DNA of 29,737 nt from Flavobacteriales bacterium (GTDB taxonomy: Bacteria; Bacteroidota; Bacteroidia; Flavobacteriales_D; Sanyastnellaceae): the NCBI GenBank assembly GCA_028825055.1, contig JAPKAW010000001.1, positions 1 to 29,737 on the forward strand, given 5' to 3'. A program made the translations under genes and the position numbers. The notes beneath the pieces are model-generated. The model ran no database searches and had not been told where the DNA came from. It saw nothing but the letters and a program-made list of their open reading frames with translations. Shown in pieces: positions 6,868 through 29,736 of the stretch (position 1 is its first letter; every line of letters begins with the position of its first letter).

Positions 6868-6914
6868 TGCTTTTAAATATTTAAAAGCAATACGTCTTAA
6901 GTTGAGACGTATTG
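6868..6914. repeat. Back-to-back palindromes (22-bp perfect palindrome, then 10-7-10 inverted repeat)
   Basis: TGCTTTTAAATATTTAAAAGCA (6868-6889) is its own reverse complement; CAATACGTCT-TAAGTTG-AGACGTATTG spans 6888-6914. Confidence 0.85.
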
Positions 6915-6938
6915 ATGCTAACGATAATAACTAACATT

Positions 6939-8576
6939 ATGAAAAGAGAAAAATTCTTTCAACTCAGCAGCATTATCGCAATAGGTGCAACAGTAGCACC
7001 TCATCTAAGTCTTAAAGCTGGCATAGGAAGATTGCAGGATGTGGACGTCGTAATTATCGGAGCCGGTCTAGCTGGACTAACTGCAGCGTATAGGCTTATT
7101 CAAATCGGTGGAATCACGGTGAAGGTTCTCGAGGCAAATTCTCGTGTTGGAGGAAGAACTCTTAACGTAGAAACGGAGAGTTGTTATCCCGCAGAACTAG
7201 GAGGCCAATGGGTTGGTCCTACGCAAACCGCTATACTCGACCTAATGGATGAATTAGGGATAGAGAGCTTTCCATCTTACTTAGAGGGAGAGTCTGTTGG
7301 TGATGAAGGGTTGAGCGATTCTGAACAAATAACCTTAGGCGGCTTTGTAGCAGAGTTAGAAGAGATGGCTTCTAGCATTGACCCTAATGCTCCTTGGACT
7401 CACCCTATGGCCATGGAATATGACGCAATGACCATAGGCGACTGGATGGATAACAACGTGGGGTTCTTCATGAATACAAACGTATACCTGATGATGTATT
7501 TCGAAATTGCTGGATGGCTAGCTGAAGCTGATAACGTTTCTCTGCTCTACTTCCTGTTTTACCTGAAAAGTGCTGGTTCATGGGAAGATCTAGCAGTATC
7601 TGCCCAATCCATGCGAGTCAACAATGGTTCTCATTCCATATCTACTGCATTAGCTGATTCTATGAGTACAGATGTGTATCTAAACTCACCTGTGTCTGAG
7701 ATCATAGAGTCTGGAAATTCTGTAACTGTAGTTTATAACGGGGGCGAAATATCATGCACTAAAGTCATTATATGTATGAATCCTAAGGACGCAGCGAACA
7801 TCAGCGTAACACCAGAGCTCCCTAGCAGTAGACTGGCGCTGCAAAATAACTGGAACCTACAAGGAGGCTTAAAGAGTAGTGTATCATTCAACACACCGTT
7901 TTGGAGAGATAACGGATTAAACGGATCTGCTTCGAATAACGATATATATATCTGCTTCGACAACTCTCCCTCCGATGCTGCATGTGGAGCGATTGTAATG
8001 TTCCCATCCGAGTCTATCACAAATTTAACGTCTCTCGAAGCCCGTGAAAACGCGACTATAGCTGCTCTTGTGGTGTTATTCGGAGAGGAAGCAAATTCCT
8101 ATGTTGACTATGTTGAACATAACTGGAGTGAAGAAGAATTCATCAGCGGATGTGTTCCAGCAATAGTGCCTGGCTTCTTCGCGAATCATGGCAGCGCCTT
8201 GAAGCAGCCCGTTGGAAACATCCATTATGCTGGTACAGAAACTTCTGATGTTTGGGCAGGTTATATGGATGGTGCCGTTCGCAGTGGAGAAAGAGTAGCT
8301 TATGAAATTCTAGATGCCCTTTCAATCCTCGATCTCACAGCTGACACTCTTCAATTATACCCCAACCCTTCTAGCGATTTCTTTAGCATATCATTGGGGT
8401 CTAGGAATCAAGCTCTAGAGGTTCACCTCTATGACATCTCTGGCAAAATCGTCTTATCAAGCTCCATTCTTACGAATTCAGCAATAAGCATAAACCACTT
8501 AGCTAGCGGAGTATACCTCGCACACGTCACATTACAAAATGGAGAAACTTTTAAGAGGCGACTCCTAAAGAGATGA
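6939..8576 (+). CDS. Flavin-dependent amine oxidase (monoamine oxidase family) fused to a T9SS type-A C-terminal domain
   Basis: GAGLAG dinucleotide motif, EANSRVGGRT, ELGGQWVGPTQ, HYAGTETSDVWAGYMDGAVRSGER; C-terminal LYPNPSSD...LYDISGK...LASGVYL...KR. Start moved from the track's 6912 to ATG 6939, which gives a signal-like N-terminus. Confidence 0.85.
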   Translation: MKREKFFQLSSIIAIGATVAPHLSLKAGIGRLQDVDVVIIGAGLAGLTAAYRLIQIGGITVKVLEANSRVGGRTLNVETESCYPAELGGQWVGPTQTAILDLMDELGIESFPSYLEGESVGDEGLSDSEQITLGGFVAELEEMASSIDPNAPWTHPMAMEYDAMTIGDWMDNNVGFFMNTNVYLMMYFEIAGWLAEADNVSLLYFLFYLKSAGSWEDLAVSAQSMRVNNGSHSISTALADSMSTDVYLNSPVSEIIESGNSVTVVYNGGEISCTKVIICMNPKDAANISVTPELPSSRLALQNNWNLQGGLKSSVSFNTPFWRDNGLNGSASNNDIYICFDNSPSDAACGAIVMFPSESITNLTSLEARENATIAALVVLFGEEANSYVDYVEHNWSEEEFISGCVPAIVPGFFANHGSALKQPVGNIHYAGTETSDVWAGYMDGAVRSGERVAYEILDALSILDLTADTLQLYPNPSSDFFSISLGSRNQALEVHLYDISGKIVLSSSILTNSAISINHLASGVYLAHVTLQNGETFKRRLLKR

Positions 8577-10451: not shown

Positions 10452-12134
10452 TTAATGCAATACAACCATACGCTGAACTCCGATTCCTCGCTCGGAGTGA
10501 ACCTGCATGAAGTAGGTGCCCATGGCCAAGTGTGATAGGTCGATCTGAGTCTGTTTGTCTACAATGTGACGAGCAAAAACGTGGCGCCCGCTGAAGTCAA
10601 ACAAGGACACATCGACACCTTCCCATTGCTCTAACAGCAAAAGTACCGTACCGCTGGTAGGGTTTGGGTAGAGTGAAAACTCCAAGGCCACTTCCTTTCC
10701 GAGTCCGACATCGGGAACGCAGATTTCGAGCGGTATAGGGTTGACCTCAATGACCGTTCCGGAGGCGAAGTCGATGTCTTCAAAAGCAGGGAAATTTGAA
10801 GGATAGCGTTCCGCTCTAAAGGTGAGATTCTGATTCAGGCTCAATTCGACACCTTGCTCCACAGGAGCGCCGCCCAATAGAGGCGTACGGTATTGCCAAG
10901 CCAACTCCGCGTCTTCTGTCAGTTCAAAAATCTCGCCGGTACGACCGCTACAAATTAGGTTATTTCCATTGCCCAAACGCTGAAAGGAACTCAAGCCACT
11001 GCTGTTCAATCCGGGCTGTGTGTAGGTCCATTCAAATGTTTCAGGTCCCCAACGGCCAGTTGTTTCGTCAAATTCGTACCCTCCTTCGTATTCGTCAAAG
11101 ATGGGGTTGATGATGGCCACTTCACTGTGCGTGCCAATACTGTCGGGTACGCGATTGTTGAAGACGAAAAACTTGACGAAATCAGGATTTCCAGGTTCCA
11201 CAGACGGGCCATTGCCCCAATGGATGTCGTGTTGGTAGAAGAGCTTTTGATCGGTGCTGTCTCCACGGTCGTAGGCAAGCGGATTGCCCCAACGCCAAAT
11301 TAAATCGTCGCTAAACGACCAATCGTGCCAGATGGTCCACACTTCATTGAAGGTGGGAATGCTCACTACAATTTGTCCGGCACTATCATAAAATGGATAG
11401 TAGTCTATGGAATTCATGTGGAGCCAATCGGCAGGTTGACTGCTGACTGATCCGAAGTTGACGTCGATTTTATTTTGATGATCAGCGATAACGCCAAAGT
11501 TCAGTTTCGTGCTGTCAAAATCCTGGACCAAATGATCCCAAGCCCGCCATTCCCAAATAACATCGGCACCACCATTTCCATTGGGTTGCAACTCAATGAG
11601 TTTGTCACTCCAAAGCACGCCCGCCTCCAGCAATTCCGGGTTTCGTCCATTTTCGATACATTCCAAGCTATCGATGGCTTCCCAACAAATCGCGATGACA
11701 TTTCCGGTTGGAGTCACGGTCATATCGTGATGAAGGCGTAGAGAATTACTGCTGGTCGTGAAGCTCCAGATTACTTCATTGTCCCACGTGCGGCGCTCGA
11801 TGGTCTCACCAGCTCCGCCAGCCCAAATGGTAGCATCTCCTGCGGAAGCAGGACGTGAGGTGATGATGATGTCCCCGTTGGGCTGCAAGTAACTGGTATT
11901 TCCTGGCCGTCTGAGGGAGTCCATTTCCCATTGATGAACGACTTCGCCACATCCATTGAGCAACATGGCTCTATGCTGGTTGTGCGGATAAATTAGCGTG
12001 TATCCATCCGTGAACAAATCGGGATTGTAGGCAATGGTGCCAACGGTGTTTTGACCGTGCACCCCTACCAATACGAGGCACATGGAAAGCAATAGAAAAG
12101 CAGGTCGTAAGGAGGTGTTTGGGCACATTATCAT
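10452..12134 (-). CDS. Arylsulfotransferase (ASST)-like beta-propeller protein with T9SS type-A C-terminal domain (paralog B)
   Basis: LHHD, DWLHMNSI, YQHDIHW, RWGNP.AY and FQRLGNGN motifs; LYPNPTSG...LAMGTYF tail. Start set at ATG 12134, which overlaps the upstream TGA (ATGA). Confidence 0.8.
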   Translation of the reverse strand: MIMCPNTSLRPAFLLLSMCLVLVGVHGQNTVGTIAYNPDLFTDGYTLIYPHNQHRAMLLNGCGEVVHQWEMDSLRRPGNTSYLQPNGDIIITSRPASAGDATIWAGGAGETIERRTWDNEVIWSFTTSSNSLRLHHDMTVTPTGNVIAICWEAIDSLECIENGRNPELLEAGVLWSDKLIELQPNGNGGADVIWEWRAWDHLVQDFDSTKLNFGVIADHQNKIDVNFGSVSSQPADWLHMNSIDYYPFYDSAGQIVVSIPTFNEVWTIWHDWSFSDDLIWRWGNPLAYDRGDSTDQKLFYQHDIHWGNGPSVEPGNPDFVKFFVFNNRVPDSIGTHSEVAIINPIFDEYEGGYEFDETTGRWGPETFEWTYTQPGLNSSGLSSFQRLGNGNNLICSGRTGEIFELTEDAELAWQYRTPLLGGAPVEQGVELSLNQNLTFRAERYPSNFPAFEDIDFASGTVIEVNPIPLEICVPDVGLGKEVALEFSLYPNPTSGTVLLLLEQWEGVDVSLFDFSGRHVFARHIVDKQTQIDLSHLAMGTYFMQVHSERGIGVQRMVVLH

Positions 12135-13810
12135 AGTTTCAAAATTACGGTACTCCCAAAGATTCCCCAAGCATCCTCCCAACGCAAAATATAACTCCCC
12201 GCAGGAAGATGTCCCCAAGCGAAAACCGTGATTCCGTGAATGGTTTCGTGCATCAATGGCCGTCCCATTGCATCGAACAGGTCAATGTCAATTGGACGGT
12301 TTGCTTGAAAATGAAATTGATCTGAAAAAGGAGTAGGGCCGAATGAAACCATGGGAGAAAGAGCGTCATTCGGCAAGTCAGTCCCTTCTGATGTGGTCGT
12401 GCAATCTGACGGGTACGGAGCCAATTCGACCGGTTCTCCGGGAGTGAGGTCTCTTCCTACCAAACCAGGGTAGTCGGGGCCGTAGCGGTAAGCTCTGAAT
12501 GTGCCGTTTTCTATGGGTTCATTGCCTTGAGTGTTGGGGCCGAATTGGCTGGTCGCGGTGATGTATTCCCAAACCTTTTCCCCTGTGGCAGTCACTTCGA
12601 ATAGCTTGCCATCGTCCCCTTCGCAAACAAGGGTGTTCCCATTGGGTAAGCGCTGTGCACCGCTGATAAATGAACTGTAAAAATCGGGATCCAATACGGC
12701 GGGGTATGTCCAGTCAAAGTCAGAAGGGCCAAAGGCCTCCTCTTCGAGTAGCAGATACGTTCCGTTATCTAACAGGGGCAATGTCAATTCATCCACTGAA
12801 CTGCGGGGTCCACCCGGACGGCTCACTCCGTTGTTGAATAGAAGCACGGTGGATGAGTTGGATTCGCTAGCCCCACCTTCTTCGTAGTGAATCCAATGGG
12901 GGTCATGTTGACCGAACAGTTGACGATCCTCTGCCTCTCCTCGACCATATGCCTCGGGGTTCCCCCAGCGGTACAACACATCACCTCCTTGCCCTGCGGC
13001 CCCTCCCGATGAGCTGGTCGCTTCGTCCGAAGTGGTGCTGTGATCGATGATGTAAAACTCATTCCAGCGTCGGCTATTCAGCATGATTTGATCCAGTGTC
13101 TCATTGTAATGGATGGCATTGCAATGGAACCAATCACCGCTGTTTTGGCTCATCGGTCCTCCACCTCCAGGGCTCTCGTAATTGATGTCGAAACGGTGGG
13201 GGAAATCAGCGGGCTCTCCATAGTTCGGTAAGTTTGGATCAACATTTTGAATGAGATGATCCCAGGCATGCCATTCCCAAACAATGTTTCCTTCACTCGT
13301 ACCGACGGGCTCAATTTCTACAATCTGAGGTGGCCAGAGGGGTGAATCTCCCACGCGACCGAGCGTCTGCGCCTCCTCATTGGAATGGAATTCCCACGCA
13401 ATCAATAGGATATTGCCATTGGGCAAAACCGCCATGTCATGATGATGGTGGGCTTCCTCCGATGCGTAATCGAAGGACCATTCGAGCACGCCATCCCAAG
13501 AAAACCTTTCCAGTCTTCCACCTATGCCTCCTCCAAAGAAGACCGAGCCGCTTAGACGTGCGGTCCGCAATAGCGAGCCATCCTCCAAGAGGTAAGAAGA
13601 TTCTCCCATCCTGTAATCACTTTCCCATTGGTTTACCACCCTTCCGCAATTGTCAATCAAATGACTTTGCGTAGCGGAGTTTGCAGACACGAGTGTGTAC
13701 CCATCAAATGATTCAGGAGTGTTCTGAATGAGTCCAATCGTGGGTGTTTGGGCCAATCCACTTGTGAGAAAGGCTCCCAATAAAAGGATCAATATGGTGA
13801 TGTTTCGCAT
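12131..13810 (-). CDS. Arylsulfotransferase (ASST)-like beta-propeller protein with T9SS type-A C-terminal domain (paralog A)
   Basis: Signal peptide; HHHHD, DWFHCNAI, NSRR, GQHDPHW and SGAQRLPNGNTLVCEG motifs; GPTPFSD...FDAMGR...LPAGSYIL tail. Confidence 0.85.
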   Translation of the reverse strand: MRNITILILLLGAFLTSGLAQTPTIGLIQNTPESFDGYTLVSANSATQSHLIDNCGRVVNQWESDYRMGESSYLLEDGSLLRTARLSGSVFFGGGIGGRLERFSWDGVLEWSFDYASEEAHHHHDMAVLPNGNILLIAWEFHSNEEAQTLGRVGDSPLWPPQIVEIEPVGTSEGNIVWEWHAWDHLIQNVDPNLPNYGEPADFPHRFDINYESPGGGGPMSQNSGDWFHCNAIHYNETLDQIMLNSRRWNEFYIIDHSTTSDEATSSSGGAAGQGGDVLYRWGNPEAYGRGEAEDRQLFGQHDPHWIHYEEGGASESNSSTVLLFNNGVSRPGGPRSSVDELTLPLLDNGTYLLLEEEAFGPSDFDWTYPAVLDPDFYSSFISGAQRLPNGNTLVCEGDDGKLFEVTATGEKVWEYITATSQFGPNTQGNEPIENGTFRAYRYGPDYPGLVGRDLTPGEPVELAPYPSDCTTTSEGTDLPNDALSPMVSFGPTPFSDQFHFQANRPIDIDLFDAMGRPLMHETIHGITVFAWGHLPAGSYILRWEDAWGIFGSTVILKL

Positions 13811-21487: not shown

Positions 21488-24400
21488 TCAATGGTGCACC
21501 ATGAAAGGCAACGAGGTTTCATTGACTCGAACGATATAGAGGCCGGGATACAAAGAGGAAACATTCATGTTTGCGCGTGTCATGCTGCGGCCTTGCCAAG
21601 GAATGGCTAAGCTCTGCCCGGTGATATTGAAAAGCGTGCAGGAGTGAATGGGGCTGTCTGAAGTGACGTTGATCCACTGGTTGGCCGGGTTGGGATAGAC
21701 TCGGAAACCTGCAGAGGAAGACACCTCGTCCTCGTTTTGCAACGCTCCCAAAGTCCAACTCGAAGCGAAGTGATTGTCCAGAAGGCTCGATACGATATGC
21801 AACGCCTCGGCACCTGCCTGTGGCACGGGCCATGGAGCTTCAGGAGCATAGCGCACAAAGTCCATGACCATTCCGGCTGCATTGGACAACACAATGCGCT
21901 CCCCTTCGTTGGCCAATTGGCCTGTTTGCCATTGGAAGACAGCATCTTGTGAGTTTTCGAAGAAACTTCCGTCGCGAACTACCCACAATGAAGCATCGGG
22001 TTCAAGAATAAAGGCCTCGGTGAGTGTCCATTGAATCGCATCACTCAGCGTATATCCTGTCATGTCGACCGATTCAGCACTTGGATTGAAAAGGCGAACC
22101 CACTCTTTGTTTGGGTTTTCAATACCGGCATAGCCAATCTCCACAATCGCAACATTTCGCTGGCCGCTCGGCCAATGGTTGAGTGTGCCCAAGTCCAAGC
22201 CGTCATTCGCAGCACCCAATGCGGGGGAGTTTTCGAGCAACGTAAAATCAAACCCATCGGGATCGGTGAAGAGGGGGTTGGCCCAATTGACTTCAGGGTC
22301 CTCCAGACTATCCGTATCACAGGTTGAATTCATCACCAATATAGAAGAGAGGGAGTCACTTGTGAACGGAGCATCGCTGGAGTTTGAAAGCAGTGTGTTT
22401 TGGACTGTGCCCCATCCACCGCCGCGTCCCACGTTTTTCTCATAAGCGCTCACTGCCGTTTGATTCCCGTACAATGTGACGTGATCGAGGTCGGCCGCAC
22501 CTTGGTCTTTCAGCGCTACACCCAGCGCACAGTGTGCGATGGTCATATTGCGAATAGTGGCATTTGAAGCTTGTCCAATGGAAATGCCTTTGTCCGTGCA
22601 ATGGTGAATCAACCCGCCTTCTATGAGGATGGACTCACTTTCTTCGCCAAGGTCGATGCCATCACTGTTTTCGCCATAGAAGGAGTGAATGGTGCAATGA
22701 AGAATGGATCCACCGACCACTTGGTCGTAATCAATGGCATCTGTATCAGGGGCGTCATTGCCAATGAACATGCACGAATCGATGAACCCAGAACCGTGGC
22801 GTACATTGATTAAATCGCCTGTAATATCTGAATGCAAGGTGCTGTTCGTGAGGACCACTTGCCCATATTCTGAGTACACCGGATTGCTGTAGTTGTTGGT
22901 CAATTCCACATGGTCCAGGGTTAAGTCGCTGAACCATACGGCAATGGCTGCACGATCGTGAACGGGGTGGGGCCCATCAGAGGCCGATTCTACAATGGCA
23001 TGTCGAATCAGATTCGGACTGGTGCTTTCTTGGAACTTGAGATGTCCCCATGGGCCTTCATAGTCCGGATTCAAACCAAATCGAATGGGCTCCATGGCAC
23101 TGCCTTCTGCATGCAGTTTTCCTTCAATAATCAAACTGACATCTGTAGGAAATAAGACTTCGACACCCGGTTCAATGGTCAAGGTCACATTCGGCAATAC
23201 GTGTGTGGTGCCGATGGCTAAATACGGGGAGCACGATAGCGCTAAAGTTAAGTCCTCCGTAATCTCCATGGGCAGGGTACATGCTCCATTGGGAGTGTAC
23301 CGTGCAGTAAAGCCTGAGCTTCCAGATAGATTTACCGATAAGGGATTTTCGGAAGAAAAGACGTCATCGGAAGCATCCAAAACGGAAAGAGTTAAATCAA
23401 AACTGATATCAGAACTGGTGCTGGAAAATTGATGGATCTCAACCGCGAGTGTATTGATGCCTGGGTTGAGGTCAACCTCCAAGGAAAAGTCATTCCAATT
23501 GGATTCGGAGGCACCTCCAACGACATCGCTTGCTGTGGTTTCGAAATCAATAGGTCCTATCGGCATATTGCTTCGGAAAAGTTCCTCCCCGTTGAGGTAG
23601 ACCACGGCACCATCGTCTCTTCTAATTTGCAAGAGTGCAGGTAGCGTTTGAGCACCATCGCTGTCAAAATTGAAGTTATGCCTGAAATACGTCGCAATGT
23701 GTTTGTCATTCGCGCTGCTTCCATATGATATGGTAGTCGCCTCATCCCCATCTCCATAGCCCAATTCGGCCTCTCCAGTCTGCCAATCGGCATCATCGAA
23801 TCCTGAAGATGTCCAATCGATTGGTGGCACATTGCCATCATCCAAAAATTTCCAATTGGACCCCGCAAGGATAAAGGGAGATAATTCCATCAGTGACCAC
23901 CCGATGAATTGCTGTCCAGGAAGTGGTTGGGCGGTTAGCTCGAATGGCATCTCTGGAAAATAGGCTCCATTCCATGGACTTCCGGGTATTTCAAATGCAT
24001 TTAGCCGAATGGTCCCCGAACCTGCGGGCAGATTTTCAGTGCGCAAATCGACGCTGGGTTCAAGGTTGAATTCGTCGGCCAAGTTTTCAAGCATATGCTG
24101 AGAGCGCTCATTTGCAAATGTTCGAAGTTCCTCGACCTCTTCTTCCCAAAACCCCACACTTTCAATGCCATTTCCATAGGATGATGTCGTTCCTTCCCAG
24201 CGTCCCACATGATACGGGATCTCCGTTTCAATGCGGTCTGCGAAATTTTGGACAACACGGTCTACACGTTGAGGATGAAACGAGGTGTATAAATGGTCGG
24301 TAAATCGTTGTGCGAAAAACGTAGCGTAGTCTGTGTTTTCAAAAGCGTGTCGGATCCAATTGCGCGCGTAGTCATAACTGTCATTCTGCGCCGTGGTGAA

Positions 24401-25954
24401 TTCGCCAATATCGTCATTGGTTGAGCCAGAAAACCCTCGGTCTAGATCGGTAAAAATGAAACGCCAGCGTCCTGAATCGGTAGGCTTTGAAAGGACGACA
24501 TTGTGACCCCAACTGCTGTTGCTGGACCAGATTTCAGTGGCCCAATAATCGGAAAACCCTTGGAAATCCATGACAGCCGCAGCCGCATCGAAATTGCTTT
24601 GGACCGAAAGGTCTTCATTCATTAACCCATCCATCAGGGCAAACGCAGCGCCATCTCCCTCCTCAATTTGACCATTGTCCGTAATTAAATCATAGGTGGC
24701 CGAGCTGAGGTTATAATTCTCTTCAATAAAGCCTTCATCAACGCGTGACCGGATGTTGTGGATGCCCATGTACTCGCCGTTGATGAATACGATGCTTGGT
24801 CGAAAGCCTTGCAATCCCACGGGAGCGTTGTCTTGGGGAAGGGATTGTCCAAGACCATCTCGCATCAGGGTATAGGCCCAATCGCTTCCACTTGCTCGCA
24901 GCACGAAGTCATCAAATTGGGTGCGGTCGCGATCATGGAACAGCGGATAATCCAACGAGCCGGCACCGTAGCCGCTTCTGAAATAGATGCCCAACATCTT
25001 TTGTGGAAGGACCCAACTGTTTTGTCCGTTTATTTTGACACCAGCTCGTTCATTGAATGCGGCTTCGTTGTTTCCGTCATTTTCAAAAAACTCAACATTC
25101 AAAGGCCATTCCCACTCTGGTTTAAAATCTTGCACATAGATTCCTGTGTCGGCATCCCAGAAGTAGTCAGGGTCTGTAACCAAGGAGAAAACAGGGAGTG
25201 GTCGCTCTGAAAATGTGGGGTCAAAGAAAAAGCTATGCGTGATGGTCTGACCGGGGATGTGGTTTTCGATGAATACACGTGCACGAATGAAAGCAGTGCT
25301 GTTGATTGCAAGTCCGTCTTCAAATTGAGGTGAATTCACTGTGGGCTCACGTCCATCCGTTGAGTATCGAATAGTTCCAGATAGTGCTGTTAACTCCAGC
25401 TCGAATGCCGATTCAAAAAAGCCGCCAATGTTTGAGAAGTGAGGCAGGTAATGGACGATCCCTTCATAAGCTGTAGACGCATTATTAGAGGTTCCAGGGG
25501 TGGGTACATCGAAGTAAGCCCAAGATGCGATGCCATCTTGATTCCGACCTCTGCTGACGTCAGTATTCTGTTCTCCGAAAACACGGCTGTCTTGAAGAAT
25601 CAGATCGGGGGTGTAAAGTCCGAGTTCCTCTCCCGTTCGACTCAATTTGAAGGAGGTATGAAGTCCCGTATCCTCGCCGTCACACCACACCAATAGAAAT
25701 CCACCTGGGGCAATGGTAGACTCAACAGGGAAGGACCATTTTGTGGAGTCGCTCAAATTGTCGGTCAGATACCAGCTACTGAGGTTGACTTCGTCGATTC
25801 CTGCATTGTAGAACTCCACCCAATCGGCATTGTTGGAGAATTCAGAGTCTTCAGCTCCTAAAGAATTGGACGCAACGAATTCATTGATTGTCACTTGACA
25901 TGCCATGTGACCAACCGCTATCATCGCGAGGATTAGGGCAATCGTCTTCATCAA
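21488..25954 (-). CDS. Large secreted CotH-kinase-family protein: lamin-tail domains, CotH domain, beta-sandwich, parallel beta-helix, T9SS type-A C-terminal domain
   Basis: INEFVASN...DWVEFYN lamin-tail domain; GVKINGQNS...QK, LRASGSDW...MRD, VFINGEYMGIHNIR, D.DRGF CotH motifs; DAIDYD/DGIDLG/DKGISIG beta-helix; VYPNPANQ...LYPGLYIV tail. Confidence 0.85.
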   Translation of the reverse strand: MMKTIALILAMIAVGHMACQVTINEFVASNSLGAEDSEFSNNADWVEFYNAGIDEVNLSSWYLTDNLSDSTKWSFPVESTIAPGGFLLVWCDGEDTGLHTSFKLSRTGEELGLYTPDLILQDSRVFGEQNTDVSRGRNQDGIASWAYFDVPTPGTSNNASTAYEGIVHYLPHFSNIGGFFESAFELELTALSGTIRYSTDGREPTVNSPQFEDGLAINSTAFIRARVFIENHIPGQTITHSFFFDPTFSERPLPVFSLVTDPDYFWDADTGIYVQDFKPEWEWPLNVEFFENDGNNEAAFNERAGVKINGQNSWVLPQKMLGIYFRSGYGAGSLDYPLFHDRDRTQFDDFVLRASGSDWAYTLMRDGLGQSLPQDNAPVGLQGFRPSIVFINGEYMGIHNIRSRVDEGFIEENYNLSSATYDLITDNGQIEEGDGAAFALMDGLMNEDLSVQSNFDAAAAVMDFQGFSDYWATEIWSSNSSWGHNVVLSKPTDSGRWRFIFTDLDRGFSGSTNDDIGEFTTAQNDSYDYARNWIRHAFENTDYATFFAQRFTDHLYTSFHPQRVDRVVQNFADRIETEIPYHVGRWEGTTSSYGNGIESVGFWEEEVEELRTFANERSQHMLENLADEFNLEPSVDLRTENLPAGSGTIRLNAFEIPGSPWNGAYFPEMPFELTAQPLPGQQFIGWSLMELSPFILAGSNWKFLDDGNVPPIDWTSSGFDDADWQTGEAELGYGDGDEATTISYGSSANDKHIATYFRHNFNFDSDGAQTLPALLQIRRDDGAVVYLNGEELFRSNMPIGPIDFETTASDVVGGASESNWNDFSLEVDLNPGINTLAVEIHQFSSTSSDISFDLTLSVLDASDDVFSSENPLSVNLSGSSGFTARYTPNGACTLPMEITEDLTLALSCSPYLAIGTTHVLPNVTLTIEPGVEVLFPTDVSLIIEGKLHAEGSAMEPIRFGLNPDYEGPWGHLKFQESTSPNLIRHAIVESASDGPHPVHDRAAIAVWFSDLTLDHVELTNNYSNPVYSEYGQVVLTNSTLHSDITGDLINVRHGSGFIDSCMFIGNDAPDTDAIDYDQVVGGSILHCTIHSFYGENSDGIDLGEESESILIEGGLIHHCTDKGISIGQASNATIRNMTIAHCALGVALKDQGAADLDHVTLYGNQTAVSAYEKNVGRGGGWGTVQNTLLSNSSDAPFTSDSLSSILVMNSTCDTDSLEDPEVNWANPLFTDPDGFDFTLLENSPALGAANDGLDLGTLNHWPSGQRNVAIVEIGYAGIENPNKEWVRLFNPSAESVDMTGYTLSDAIQWTLTEAFILEPDASLWVVRDGSFFENSQDAVFQWQTGQLANEGERIVLSNAAGMVMDFVRYAPEAPWPVPQAGAEALHIVSSLLDNHFASSWTLGALQNEDEVSSSAGFRVYPNPANQWINVTSDSPIHSCTLFNITGQSLAIPWQGRSMTRANMNVSSLYPGLYIVRVNETSLPFMVHH

Positions 25955-26297
25955 TACGGGAAGCTATTGAAATTCAAAGTGGAGTAAAAGTAGGTGTCAT
26001 CAGAGCATTCTCCCCTTTTATTCCGGACCTAAAGTGAAGCGATCACATACTGATGAATGAAATGGTATTGGGTTCAATGGAGAGACATGTAATCTATAAA
26101 ACTATCCTCTGGCGGCATTTTAGTGAGGGTGTGTTGATGTGTTTTAAAATAAGTTCGCAGAATTGGACTTCATATAAACGATGTAAACCAATGATAATCA
26201 GCATATAAACACATCAATGTTCATTCGTGAATTGGTCAATGTAAAATAGTGATAGTTCTAATTCCGTCTTTTGGGTAATTCTAAAAATCATTTCATA

Positions 26298-26810
26298 ATG
26301 AAAAAAGTATTTCTCTCTTTTGTTGCAGCTTCTATAGCGGTTGCCTCTTTTGCCCAGGATGACGCTGTTCTTCAGCCAAAAGGATCATGGTATCTAGGAA
26401 GTGCTAATGCGACAGACATCTTCAAGATTTTCTCGAATGACGGAATGAATGTAGATCCTTTCGTAGGCTATGCAATTGCCGACAACATTGCGATTACTCT
26501 CGGAGTTAACTTAAGTTCTATAACTATTGATGAGCCGTCTTTGACACAATCATTTTCCGAGATTTCGGTTGGAGCAGCGTACTTCTTTGGAGATAATTTT
26601 TTCGGTCAAGCTGGTGTTACAATGGGTGCTACAGACGATGGTAATGAAAACACAACGAGCATGACGTCAATTGGCCTTGCTCTGGGCAAGTACATTCCTG
26701 TGCGTGACATGTGGTACGTGAGCCCTTCCTTAGGATACAACACTGTGACCATGGACGGAGGTTCAGGTTCAGGAGCTGCTTTGGGTATCACTTTCGGAGC
26801 TCGTCTCTAA
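26298..26810 (+). CDS. Small outer-membrane beta-barrel protein (OmpA-TM/porin-like family)
   Basis: Signal peptide (SFA|Q); alternating amphipathic strands; ends LGITFGARL. Start set at ATG 26298. Confidence 0.75.
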   Translation: MKKVFLSFVAASIAVASFAQDDAVLQPKGSWYLGSANATDIFKIFSNDGMNVDPFVGYAIADNIAITLGVNLSSITIDEPSLTQSFSEISVGAAYFFGDNFFGQAGVTMGATDDGNENTTSMTSIGLALGKYIPVRDMWYVSPSLGYNTVTMDGGSGSGAALGITFGARL

Positions 26811-26829
26811 AGTTTACGGACTCAACAAG

Positions 26830-26858
26830 AAAGGGGAGGCATTAGCCTCCCCTTTTTT
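26830..26858 (+). terminator. Intrinsic terminator
   Basis: AAAGGGGAGGC-ATTA-GCCTCCCCTTT followed by further T residues. Confidence 0.85.
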
Positions 26859-26959
26859 CGCGCTAATAATCCATCATTTACCGTTCCATATCAGTTAGCA
26901 GACCGAGACAATTCAAGCGAAGACGATTCTAGCGCTTTCAGTTTTCTGTACTATCGAAA

Positions 26960-28042
26960 CTATCGACTTACTGCAACACGATGAATCGCACCATCAATTT
27001 TCACGAGGTAAAGTCCTGGGTCCAAACCAACAAGTTCGAAGTGCCACGTATCCGTGCTCGTATTGGATGCTGGTAAATCCAAACGTTGTCCGCTGAGGTT
27101 GAACCACTCCACAGATTCAATCGGCCCTGAAGATGAAGCAGTCAGGTATGAGTTCGCTGGATTGGGGTAAACTCGAGTGTCCTCATTGGAATAGGTGGTC
27201 GTTGCATTTGCTCCTCCAGATTCCATGCCTTCAAATGCATGTGCAGGCATGTCGAACAAATCGTCGTCGTCATTTCCTTCGTCGTCGTCATTCCCGACTC
27301 CTTCTCCAGGCCAATCAATGCTGCATGTTTCAAATGAATCTTGCCATTCCAACAGTTGCTCCTGATTATTCTCTTCAAGTATAAAGTTGAAGACCCAGTC
27401 CCCTCGAAAAGCCACGGTTCCGTCGCATTGAATGCCAAGAAATCCAAAGGGGCGTTGGAAGAAATTATTGTAGACAGCATTGTCTGGATTGTCTGCATAC
27501 AAGTTATACGGAAAGTTGAATTCTGGGGCGCTGTTCCACGAGTCTAGAGACCATCGGCGGTAAGCGTAATCCGGCGATTGGACCACGGTTGTGTCGGTCG
27601 AAGTCGTTGGAGGGCAGTTGCTAGGACAGTTGCCATCTGTCGGGTGAGCTTCAATGCCATACACGAAGATGTAATTGAACATGTCCTGCGTGTTTTCAAT
27701 GAATTCACTGACGACAAAGTAGGATTGATGGCTTTCAACGGAGTTAAATGCATTCCTGAAACGCAAACAAGAAACCGATCCGTTGATGATGACAACGGGT
27801 TTTTCGCCTGCGAGTTCTTCATACAGATTTATGGAATTGCCATCAAAATCGTACACTGTAAAATTGAAAACAGTATCACCAACGTGATAGCCGCCTGACA
27901 TATCATTCAAAGAGCCATAAAAGATGAGGTCATCCACGGCCTCCATGTCATCGGGTTGTTCTGAAATGCCAAAATCACCGTATTGAGCATGCAGAATAAA
28001 AATGGAATGCAAAAGCAATCCAATAGTGAGAAGATGTTTCAT
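26960..28042 (-). CDS. Secreted iodothyronine-deiodinase-like (thioredoxin/peroxiredoxin-fold) protein with T9SS type-A C-terminal domain
   Basis: KPVVIINGSVSCLRF matches DIO RPLVLNFGSCTUPxF; FVYGIEAHPTDG matches IYIEEAHPSDG; ADNPDN...RP matches VDTMxN...P. Acidic linker, then VYPNPANS...FNLSGQ...LDPGLYLV tail. Confidence 0.75.
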   Translation of the reverse strand: MKHLLTIGLLLHSIFILHAQYGDFGISEQPDDMEAVDDLIFYGSLNDMSGGYHVGDTVFNFTVYDFDGNSINLYEELAGEKPVVIINGSVSCLRFRNAFNSVESHQSYFVVSEFIENTQDMFNYIFVYGIEAHPTDGNCPSNCPPTTSTDTTVVQSPDYAYRRWSLDSWNSAPEFNFPYNLYADNPDNAVYNNFFQRPFGFLGIQCDGTVAFRGDWVFNFILEENNQEQLLEWQDSFETCSIDWPGEGVGNDDDEGNDDDDLFDMPAHAFEGMESGGANATTTYSNEDTRVYPNPANSYLTASSSGPIESVEWFNLSGQRLDLPASNTSTDTWHFELVGLDPGLYLVKIDGAIHRVAVSR

Positions 28043-28068
28043 TTTCTTGAGTCAATCAAACAAACAAC

Positions 28069-28093
28069 TGCGAACAGTCTAAAAATGTTCGCA
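28069..28093. repeat. Inverted repeat (terminator or operator) upstream of the deiodinase-like gene
   Basis: TGCGAACA (28069-28076), 9-nt spacer, TGTTCGCA (28086-28093). Confidence 0.5.
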
Positions 28094-28173
28094 TTCGATT
28101 AAGCCTGGGATTTTGTTCAGGCCTCCGGTTCTAAAATTGCAACGGCTGAGTCCATTGCAAAAGGATACAGAGC

Positions 28174-29736
28174 CTAATTTTTAACAGCGCGAATTGTACG
28201 GGTGTGAGTGCCTTGTTCCATCCGAATAGAATAAATCCCTGGCTTCCAAGACGCTGTTTTCAAAGGACCAAACGAGTTGGAATTGTTCAATTGGATGTTT
28301 TGCTGAACGACGAGCTCTCCCAACGCATTGTAAACCTGAATGGATGTAATCTCGTTTCCGTCACGAGCAATGTTCCCTATGAAAAGAACATCCGAGAATG
28401 GATTGGGAAATGCGATGGCTTGTTCGTTCCAGTCAACGCTGTTCACATCGACAGTTGCGTTGACATTGACCTGTTGATCCAAATCGCTGAAAGAGAAAGA
28501 GCCATCATAATCAAAAATTACAGCGATCGGTTCCTCCACATCATTCAAAGCTTGAATGCTACATGATCCATCCACGCCTCCAAATGCAGCGCCGTTCATG
28601 CCGTCGCCATAGTCATCCATCAATGTAAAAGTGAAGCATCCCGCACTCGGAAGGCTCACACCAATCTCATATTCCGTCAGATTGCTGTAGGCATTGGGCC
28701 CAGATTGTTGAACCAGAGAGCCTCCTTCATCGCGAATCTCCCAGGAGGTTTCATCGGCCCAGTTGTCCGTGTTCAACGTGATGAGCCATTGGGTCGTCCC
28801 TTCAGGTGATCCCGTAATGGATGCGGAGATGACATCATTGAGCGGGTTCAAATCCGGGGTTGTAATTTGAACGTTTACTGTGGTTGCAGCTTCAAAAGAA
28901 TAGGTGCCCATTTCAACGATTGCTGATTGGTATGATGCCAAACTCCCTTCCCATGGTTGCTCCAAAACGATGGAACCATCGACGACCAGTCCCAATTGGA
29001 CACTGGTGAGTTCATCACTACCCCAGTTGGTTAGAGATACAGCGACGTTCAGTGGGTCTGCAGAGCAAATGATCGTTTCGCCCAAGTACTCGGAAATACC
29101 AGCATCGGATGTAATTGCAGGTGTCATAGCCAATTTCCAATTGGTGTCCATGTAATCAAATGTTCCCGGATCCATGCTCATGCCATTGATGAGGTAAACC
29201 TCATTGTTGATGACAAAGGAAGAGGGGGCCCAACGGGACATGCCCGGATGCGCAGGCCATTGCGTCCAAGAATCGTCCAAGGGGTCGAATTGCCAAAATT
29301 CACCTGTAGGCATGGAGGTATGGCCTTCTCCGTCTCCGCTCAAGGCGTAGCCCATTCCATTATGAGCAAATTGGGCGCCGGCGACGCGACCTTGGTCCGG
29401 CAACGTGGTCATTTCCGTCCAGCTTTCACCTGTAGGGTCATACCGGTACCATTCGTTGAAAATTTCTGTGCTATGGTGACCGAAACCAACATATACCTGC
29501 CCATCGATTCCAAATTGATACGGGTGGTGGCGTTGCGTGTCAGGAAATGTTGGTTTTTCCGACCATGTGTCGGACTCCATGTCATATTCCCACCAATCAT
29601 TCAGGTCTCCAGTTGCTGAATTTCCAAGACCAACATAAATGTGATCGTCAATGGCGACGAAAGCGGGGTGCATCCTGGCGTCACACGGACATGATGCTTT
29701 CTCTTCCCAATTTCCAGTCGCCGGATCAAAGACCCA
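28174..29736 (-). CDS. Kelch-repeat protein with Ig-like/CARDB region and T9SS type-A C-terminal domain; 5' end lies beyond the right edge
   Basis: The frame stays open to the edge (WVFDPATGNWEEKASCPCDARMHPAF...), so the track's start at 29673 is internal. Kelch-like blades (GLG..DWWEYD, GFG..EWYRYD, LSG..EFWQFD); TDNWADETSW...DDYGDG domain; FPNPFSD...YNALGE...KPGIYSI tail. Confidence 0.8.
   Translation of the reverse strand, partial: WVFDPATGNWEEKASCPCDARMHPAFVAIDDHIYVGLGNSATGDLNDWWEYDMESDTWSEKPTFPDTQRHHPYQFGIDGQVYVGFGHHSTEIFNEWYRYDPTGESWTEMTTLPDQGRVAGAQFAHNGMGYALSGDGEGHTSMPTGEFWQFDPLDDSWTQWPAHPGMSRWAPSSFVINNEVYLINGMSMDPGTFDYMDTNWKLAMTPAITSDAGISEYLGETIICSADPLNVAVSLTNWGSDELTSVQLGLVVDGSIVLEQPWEGSLASYQSAIVEMGTYSFEAATTVNVQITTPDLNPLNDVISASITGSPEGTTQWLITLNTDNWADETSWEIRDEGGSLVQQSGPNAYSNLTEYEIGVSLPSAGCFTFTLMDDYGDGMNGAAFGGVDGSCSIQALNDVEEPIAVIFDYDGSFSFSDLDQQVNVNATVDVNSVDWNEQAIAFPNPFSDVLFIGNIARDGNEITSIQVYNALGELVVQQNIQLNNSNSFGPLKTASWKPGIYSIRMEQGTHTRTIRAVKN

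Follow-up and report, generated by a model that had tools for sequence, protein, structure and literature searches.

Which chemistry would an iodothyronine deiodinase-like protein carry out at the surface of a marine bacterium? This question is raised by a gene in a 29,737-nt stretch (the window, whose numbering gives all coordinates below unless another locus is named) of a Flavobacteriales bacterium metagenome-assembled genome (MAG; GCA_028825055.1, contig JAPKAW010000001.1). The open reading frame at 26960..28042 on the minus strand, the strand of all its features given below, is the whole coding sequence of a predicted secreted protein of 360 aa plus the stop codon. From profile comparisons and a predicted structure, we conclude that its catalytic domain is a genuine but distant Cys-type relative of the iodothyronine deiodinases (DIOs) and not an ordinary TlpA/AhpC redoxin. 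We consider that the protein as a whole probably acts as a surface or secreted thiol enzyme, exported by type IX secretion (through the T9SS), whose chemistry would be of DIO/peroxiredoxin type and in which a cysteine of a loop would be the resolving partner.

The kinship with the DIOs was clearest when the family profile was restricted to the catalytic domain (residues 20–241, 27320..27985), a thioredoxin-fold domain which includes a conserved N-terminal extension (QYGDFG...P30) and was delimited by the profile, the predicted structure, structural searches and the NCBIfam family NF038285. Searched against the PDB, this domain-only profile found the mouse enzymes Dio2 (9h48, E=1e-14) and Dio3 (4tr3, E=5e-13), while the next classes were BCP (2e-5), YkuV (3e-5), ResA (8e-5) and GPx (4e-4), a margin of about nine orders of magnitude for the DIOs over other redoxins. 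The alignment places Cys92 on the selenocysteine (Sec, U) position, EAHP on EAHP, and D184/N188 on the D..N motif of the DIOs. A preliminary description of this DNA had seen a block-by-block likeness to the DIO catalytic domain; these profile values put the likeness far beyond chance, and the motifs from which it had been drawn, GDTVFNFTVYDFDGNSINLYEELAGEKPVVIINGSVSC, VYGIEAHPTDG, ADNPDNAVYNNFFQRP and GTVAFRG, were all found in the protein. Between T4_deiodinase on the one hand and Redoxin/AhpC-TSA on the other, the best hits were DIO structures rather than ordinary redoxins, and the protein itself had no AhpC-TSA or Redoxin Pfam match even at E<=10. Trimming to the domain was what brought the DIOs out, as the full-length profile was dominated in the PDB by the T9SS tail (Dio3 at E=0.075), and a PDB search with the single sequence gave non-significant DIO matches (Dio2 at E=0.4). 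In a broad superfamily set of 43 members at 20–35 % identity, 37 match PF00837 (E<=0.01, best 7e-12) and 22 match AhpC-TSA more weakly (best 2.6e-6). NF038285 is matched by 41 of the 43 (best E=1.7e-27), none of which appears to reach its cut-off, and a few of the close homologs bear a precomputed PF00837 match.

The predicted structure led to the same family. In the first AlphaFold2 (AF2) model, made for the full-length protein, the predicted local distance difference test (pLDDT) was 69 and fell below 50 in the invariant loop; Dio2 and Dio3 already stood first in the structure ranking, hardly separated from ResA. A domain-only AF2 model built on an 80-sequence alignment reached a pLDDT of 94.7 and a predicted template-modelling score of 0.91, with 83–91 in the invariant loop. 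This model has a thioredoxin/peroxiredoxin (Trx/Prx) fold carrying the DIO-specific insertion (loop-D, strand betaD and helix alphaD). With it, Foldseek gave Dio3 at 5e-8 and Dio2 at 8e-8 against 2.8e-6 for the best peroxiredoxin, so that the comparison with mouse Dio3 proposed in the preliminary description ended with the two DIOs in front and the insertion in place. Exhaustive alignment to 48,161 PDB representatives again ranked Dio3 first (Z 15.2, 167 of 188 residues aligned, 21 % identity), ahead of a runner-up with Z 13.8, 148 aligned residues and 14 % identity, and redoxins aligned over at most 156 residues. Thus the DIOs top all four structural comparisons and align the most residues. 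A search of the AlphaFold database (AFDB) Swiss-Prot set listed no DIO, and we suspect that Sec-containing entries are unmodelled in that set; in the AFDB clusters, all matches were redoxin or T9SS entries with automatic names.

We mapped the active site through the domain-profile alignment to DIO structures, taking residue roles and Dio3 numbering from PMC11592359. The proton relay of Dio3 consists of Ser167, Thr169, Tyr197, Glu200, His202 and His219 (PMC11592359), and five of the six are kept here, namely Ser89 (Ser167), Ser91 (Thr169), Tyr128 (Tyr197), Glu131 (Glu200) and His133 (His202), the sixth position, His219, being Ser156 in this protein and Pro in the family consensus. Gln155 (Gln218), Arg162 (Arg225), Asp184 (Asp244) and Asn188 (Asn248) are kept as well. 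Cys92 corresponds to Sec170, with G88-S89-V90-S91-C92 aligned on GSCT-U/GSAT-U and Cys92 on the Sec-to-Cys residue of 9h48 and 4tr3. Its codon at 27767..27769 reads TGT and not TGA, and the cysteine in place of selenocysteine claimed at the outset is therefore real. Several other DIO features are gone. The proximal auxiliary cysteine Cys168 has become Val90 and the distal one, Cys239, Tyr179, and among the thyronine-binding residues Trp207 is replaced by Asn138, Glu259 by Phe199 and Arg275 by about Trp216. Since the thyronine clamp, His219 and both auxiliary cysteines are absent, thyroid hormone is, judged by this alignment, not the substrate.

Cysteine occupies position 92 in 42 of the 43 members of the broad set. 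In distant exported homologs from Terriglobia MAGs, which read ...ASYT-U-GPFRR...YIREAHPTDGN..., an in-frame TGA stands exactly at the Cys92 position and the frame continues beyond it. Natural exchange of Sec and Cys at a single position is a classical signature of a redox-active catalytic residue, and by this comparison Cys92 is a redox-catalytic residue. The Terriglobia genes (L050:5701-6600 (+) and L046:5701-6630 (+)) are probable selenoprotein genes which gene callers would cut at the TGA.

What sets the protein apart from the DIOs is a group of additional cysteines that defines a subfamily. Homologs with E<=0.001 numbered 234 in a word-indexed search and 216 in an exhaustive search of 1.8 billion representatives. 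Across 36 diverse close homologs, the invariant positions are Gln20, G88-S-V-S-C92, R94, R96, Y128, the run E131-A-H133-P-T-D-G-N-C139-P-S-N-C143-P144 (27611..27652), Q155, Y159, R162, D184, N185, N188, R197, C206 and C240. The core that survives in the broad set comprises S89, C92, Y128, E131 and H133 (these two in 41–42 of 43 members), Q155, Y159, R162, D184 and N188; C139, C143, C206, C240 and R197 are specific to the subfamily. The invariant run joins the DIO EAH motif to the subfamily's own CPSNCP, which lies 6–11 residues past His133, at the start of the DIO loop-D, an omega loop that borders the DIO catalytic centre and closes over the substrate (PMC11592359). The preliminary description had placed CPSNC after EAH at the Trp-containing DIO loop, and the profile alignment agrees, with EAHPSDGW in the DIOs and EAHPTDGNCPSNCP here. 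The codons of C139 and C143 are at 27626-27628 and 27614-27616; Cys206 (27425..27427) sits in a beta-hairpin turn and Cys240 (27323..27325) directly after the last helix.

These cysteines occur together. Among 238 homologs with the EAH motif, 136 have C92, C139, C143, C206 and C240, and 81 have C92 only. The C-x-S-N-C motif, C206 and a C-terminal cysteine are also linked in a wider clade, some of whose proteins have TSP3 calcium-binding repeats. About ten distant relatives have only C92 and one loop cysteine, in C-P-[YFL], at the place of one of the CP dipeptides of CPSNCP, and these two-Cys relatives lend some support to the idea that a loop cysteine of CPSNCP may resolve the Cys92 intermediate. 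Almost all close homologs also bear the T9SS tail, a C-terminal domain (CTD). Their public names are only 'T9SS type A sorting domain-containing protein' or 'hypothetical'; as these names follow the T9SS tail alone, the catalytic domain is invisible in databases. We are thus dealing with a T9SS-exported subfamily with five cysteines and CPSNCP, whose deiodinase-like nature escapes standard annotation.

The signal peptide and the T9SS tail attributed to the protein earlier are both present. Residues 1–19 (MKHLLTIGLLLHSIFILHA; 27986..28042), as read from the sequence, form a signal peptide for Sec-dependent export, whose predicted cleavage between LHA and Q leaves Gln20 as the new N-terminus. 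Gln20 is invariant in 36 of 36 close homologs (Gln in 30 of the 43 of the broad set), which fits the Bacteroidetes Q-rule (PMC5837995, PMC10653852). Behind the catalytic domain follows an acidic low-complexity linker rich in D/E/G/N (residues 242–287, 27182..27319), recognised from the alignment and from pLDDT values below 50 in the full-length model; its length varies from about 20 to more than 100 residues in the alignment of close homologs. The C-terminal residues 288–360 (26963..27181) are a type-A T9SS sorting domain that passes the curated cut-offs of both PF18962 (29.1 bits against 27; residues 291–351) and TIGR04183 (32 bits against 23), and the full-length family profile also matches the solved T9SS CTDs 8glj/8glk. 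By these two predicted signals, the protein is T9SS type-A cargo. Its 2.19-Mb host MAG, 80 % complete, contains 64 T9SS-tail matches, at least 57 of them above the cut-off.

We propose the following route from synthesis to catalysis. The signal peptide would direct the protein to the periplasm, where cleavage would expose Gln20, and the type-A sorting domain would then carry it across the outer membrane for release or anchoring at the cell surface, with the acidic linker keeping the 220-residue catalytic domain apart from the sorting domain. The Cys92 thiolate would attack a peroxide oxygen or, in a halogenated phenolic compound, the halogen, in either case an electrophilic heteroatom; this would give a sulfenyl intermediate, with the leaving group protonated by the Glu/His/Tyr/Ser relay. 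In the mobile loop-D, one of the cysteines of the invariant CPSNCP would resolve this intermediate as a disulfide, and an external thiol or a co-exported redoxin would regenerate the enzyme. For the chemistry itself, we tentatively place dehalogenation of halo-aromatics (halogenated phenolics) first, because no feature is conserved more strictly than the DIO-specific relay and insertion, both missing from peroxiredoxins; taken singly it is the most likely activity, with a peroxidase as a close second, yet it is far from being an assured one.

Under that second explanation the protein would be a secreted 2-Cys-type thiol peroxidase, with Cys92 as the peroxidatic and a loop-D cysteine as the resolving residue, and the cell surface that it would clear of hydrogen peroxide or organic hydroperoxides is that of a marine bacterium with a small genome. 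DIOs are themselves built on a peroxiredoxin-like module and motif (PMC11592359), and in the structural search by Foldseek the next places go to Prx Q, BCP and Tpx; however, the EAH relay and the insertion, both specific to DIOs, are strictly kept. Ser89 stands at the position of the Prx Thr (S-x-x-C), but the Pro of PxxxTxxC is replaced by Ile85. Similarly, the weak AhpC-TSA matches of the 22 relatives contrast with the empty result for the protein itself. A Prx-type Arg is not established either: R197 is subfamily-specific (Ala in 25 of the 43) and the superfamily-invariant R162 is without a placement in three dimensions. Exchange of Sec and Cys is typical of peroxidases too, while the problem of the reductant is the same as for a dehalogenase. 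On balance, we regard a peroxidase as possible but somewhat doubtful.

It is improbable, in our view, that the protein is a thiol-disulfide oxidoreductase or isomerase acting on exported proteins, such as T9SS cargo or surface proteins, instead of a small molecule. In its favour, this genome exports many proteins, with at least 57 T9SS tails above the cut-off, and a precedent exists in HBP35 of P. gingivalis, a T9SS-exported protein with a thioredoxin motif (PMC2907840, PMC3120885). However, the active site here is SVSC without a CxxC, and 81 relatives manage with a single cysteine. Structures close to the model include those of ResA, TlpA, DsbE and a Bacteroides PDI-like protein, yet the profile match to ResA/TlpA falls short of that to the DIOs by nine orders of magnitude, and disulfide exchange has no use for the DIO-type Glu/His/Tyr relay.

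Binding of copper or zinc instead of catalysis seems less probable still. In this case His133, Cys139, Cys143 and Cys92 would make up a site resembling the CPxxCP plus His of Sco copper chaperones, with which C-P-S-N-C-P presumably shares its spacing and prolines. Copper-related MbnP/MbnH genes lie 8 kb away. Sco structures do appear among the structural matches (4wbj and 4txo by Foldseek with the domain model, and 1xzo), but at low rank (E ~3e-5, rank 29–42), and their CxxxC occupies the thioredoxin active-site position, while the cysteines here are in loop-D, 47 residues beyond it. Moreover, the 81 relatives without the extra cysteines keep Cys92, Glu131 and His133 nevertheless, and Sec at position 92 in homologs points to redox catalysis. 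Last, an ordinary TlpA/AhpC-type redoxin with a superficial DIO resemblance, although suggested by the sub-threshold PF00837 score and non-significant PDB search of the single sequence and by redoxins as close structural runners-up, is already contradicted and hardly credible, given the family profile (Dio2 at 1e-14, redoxins at 2e-5 or weaker), the first rank of the DIOs in all four structural comparisons with the most residues aligned, and the EAHP, Q..R and D...N motifs and insertion which DIOs and this protein have in common.

Several points weigh against our view of the protein as an exported enzyme of DIO/peroxiredoxin type. The match to Pfam T4_deiodinase (PF00837) covers only residues 41–139 and, at 21.8 bits (E=1.3e-4), stays below the gathering threshold of 27. 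The NCBIfam deiodinase_rel model NF038285 is matched at 52.5 bits (E=5e-14, profile positions 152–342 of 347), far under its 250-bit cut-off, so that the protein is not that equivalog. The structural margin over ResA/TlpA/Prx folds, though consistent, is modest (Z 15.2 against 13.8). With the substrate-binding residues of the DIOs unconserved, nothing in the protein speaks specifically for iodinated substrates, and there are no activity data for any bacterial DIO-like protein (PMC13188914). The gene order Kelch, DIO-like, small outer-membrane protein (OMP), CotH-lamin-tail domain, YceI is seen only among close relatives at 65–88 % identity; relatives at 45–60 % identity have different neighbours, and the window's clade therefore has no conserved operon partner. 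The main weakness, shared by every redox explanation, is that an extracellular thiol enzyme in oxic seawater has no obvious electron donor.

Two further exported proteins of the same genome contain redoxin domains. One (L010:1441-2916 (+), G000:C119) is 491 aa long and joins a WCGPC thioredoxin/AhpC-TSA domain to a T9SS tail behind a signal peptide; the other (L009:1-1713 (-), G000:C231) combines AhpC-TSA/Redoxin, cupredoxin and fasciclin domains. Their domain content suggests a surface thiol-redox toolkit from which reductants for the DIO-like enzyme might come, and thiol-based redox reactions at the surface may be a more general feature of the host organism. A more specific proposal, which we consider unlikely, is that the subfamily is a cofactor-free, thiol-based extracellular reductive dehalogenase that would deiodinate or debrominate algal or invertebrate halophenolics and halotyrosines for abundant marine Flavobacteriales, with CPSNCP as an electron relay and a co-exported thioredoxin-like protein recharging it.

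Compared with known systems, the closest counterparts are vertebrate Dio1–3 (PF00837; mouse Dio3 4TR3/4TR4, mouse Dio2 9H48). They share with our protein the thioredoxin fold, a Prx-like N-terminal beta-hairpin, the DIO insertion, the G-S-x-[ST]-[U/C] site, the relay residues of VY..EAHP, Q..(7)..R in the insertion helix and D-x-x-x-N before helix 2. In contrast to them, our protein has Cys in place of Sec, a cleavable signal peptide and a T9SS tail where the DIOs have an N-terminal membrane anchor, and, as additions, 30 more residues at the N-terminus, the loop-D CPSNCP and another two cysteines, at 17–21 % identity. Bacterial Sec and Cys deiodinase-like proteins were predicted from Sargasso Sea metagenomes by Zhang, Fomenko & Gladyshev in 2005 (PMC1088965) and were still functionally unassigned in reviews of 2022 and 2026 (PMC9312934, PMC13188914). 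Together with NF038285, they resemble our protein in being prokaryotic and marine, in having Sec and Cys forms and in their homologous domain; the catalogued bacterial selenoprotein form has a UxxC motif, whereas the corresponding residues here are C-L-R-F with no Cys at +3. Peroxiredoxins (BCP/PrxQ, Tpx, AhpE) are alike in fold class, in the single nucleophilic Cys at the N-terminus of helix 1, in Ser/Thr at -3 and in a possible resolving Cys in a mobile loop, but our protein lacks the Prx Pro and any AhpC-TSA match and has the DIO-type EAH relay and insertion. HBP35 of Porphyromonas gingivalis (PMC2907840, PMC3120885), also from Bacteroidota, likewise combines a thioredoxin-fold domain with a T9SS CTD and surface display; by its description, it is set apart by a CxxC motif and hemin binding and by having no DIO-type active site or insertion. 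In the literature searched, we found no paper joining 'deiodinase' and 'type IX secretion'.

The named genomes with the subfamily are only uncultured marine Flavobacteriales (Cryomorphaceae- and Crocinitomicaceae-type MAGs) and Sanyastnella coralliicola. Within the order, the distribution is patchy, with a DIO-like match at E<=1e-10 in 17 of 151 sampled genomes; in the window's family, 8 of 21 genomes other than the window's own have one. The window's genome contains one copy. Elsewhere in the order, four small DIO-like paralogs (open frames of 240–260 aa) stand in tandem at G050:C19:15682-18376, and two relatives, G103 and G109, have two copies each. A 41 %-identical homolog on a long tree branch (L040, CAZKMC010000227.1) comes from a 4.7-kb contig binned as 'uncultured Comamonadaceae', and it is either mis-binned or transferred outside Bacteroidota.

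Turning to the gene neighbourhood, we rejected synteny as a functional linkage, since it reflects close relatedness only. A second candidate, a cytoplasmic 186-aa CxxC redoxin, was rejected as an obligate partner: although encoded no more than a few kb from the gene at 12 loci, it lies on a different contig here. This redoxin is a CNHCPF thioredoxin-like/AhpC-TSA protein, often found beside an ABM-domain protein and a TonB-dependent receptor (L002:6648-7571, L006:1680-2590, L007:7084-7644), and its ortholog in the window's genome, at 65 % identity, is on contig C198.

Another, paralogous clade of DIO-like genes has a co-directional small lipoprotein gene 70–100 bp upstream, seen in 21 of 40 loci (L006:5637-5924 (+); L002:7613-7912, L021:5598-5885, L029:5601-5882, L044:5544-5840, and others). 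The encoded lipoprotein has a lipobox and about 75 mature residues with four invariant cysteines (C...CxC...PC), and it matched no Pfam or NCBIfam family. Neither single proteins nor a profile found it in the window's genome, which is 80 % complete. This lipoprotein might act as a chaperone or partner in the periplasm. Complex prediction for the L006 pair returned a score of 0.00, which gives no answer and speaks neither for nor against binding. Likewise, the subfamily tree rooted on the Terriglobia Sec homolog has a 10-unit branch and gives no order for gain or loss of the lipoprotein linkage. In the Flavobacteriales MAG CAJWIF01 (L013, L031) the two paralog types coexist: one copy, of the window type and 88 % identical, has no lipoprotein beside it, while the other, at 58 % identity, does.

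Within the window itself, T9SS-tagged proteins of CotH/lamin-tail domain (LTD), Kelch, amine-oxidase, arylsulfotransferase and MbnP types are encoded. It is rich in T9SS cargo with unusual catalytic domains, at 6912-8576, 10452-13810, 21488-25954 and 28174-29736. Among this cargo are a flavin amine oxidase, a pair of arylsulfotransferase-like proteins of which one has a T9SS tail, a CotH kinase/lamin-tail/beta-helix protein of 1488 aa and, encoded directly upstream of the DIO-like gene, a Kelch propeller. For several of these enzymes, the substrates would be phenolic or aromatic-amine compounds. At 26271-26810 (+), in convergent orientation to the DIO-like gene, lies a gene for a small outer-membrane beta-barrel of 179 aa with a sub-threshold OMP_b-brl match.

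The DIO-like gene is transcribed in situ in the ocean. Parts of it were present in 13 marine metatranscriptome runs from seven studies. In four of these runs, picked for containing the gene (two of them look like one data set filed twice), contigs of at least 99 % identity tile 26778-27871, covering the gene body and 3' end, and further contigs cover 26292-26817, in the convergent small OMP gene. The same four runs had no contigs on 27948-29355 or 25900-26283, leaving the Kelch and CotH genes uncovered, and these silent flanks argue against carry-over of DNA.

Bacterial deiodinase-like proteins have been catalogued since 2005, none of them with a known substrate (PMC1088965, PMC13188914). The subfamily described here offers a tractable entry point, being compact, strongly conserved and transcribed in the ocean, with a high-confidence model; its Cys in place of Sec means that no selenoprotein expression system is needed, and at least one cultured species, Sanyastnella coralliicola, has it. 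The predicted surface export would place DIO-type chemistry outside the cell, and raises the question of where extracellular thiol enzymes get their electrons. If the subfamily were indeed an extracellular thiol dehalogenase, bacterial deiodinase-like proteins would thereby gain their first functional assignment, and the marine iodine cycle a new enzymatic route.

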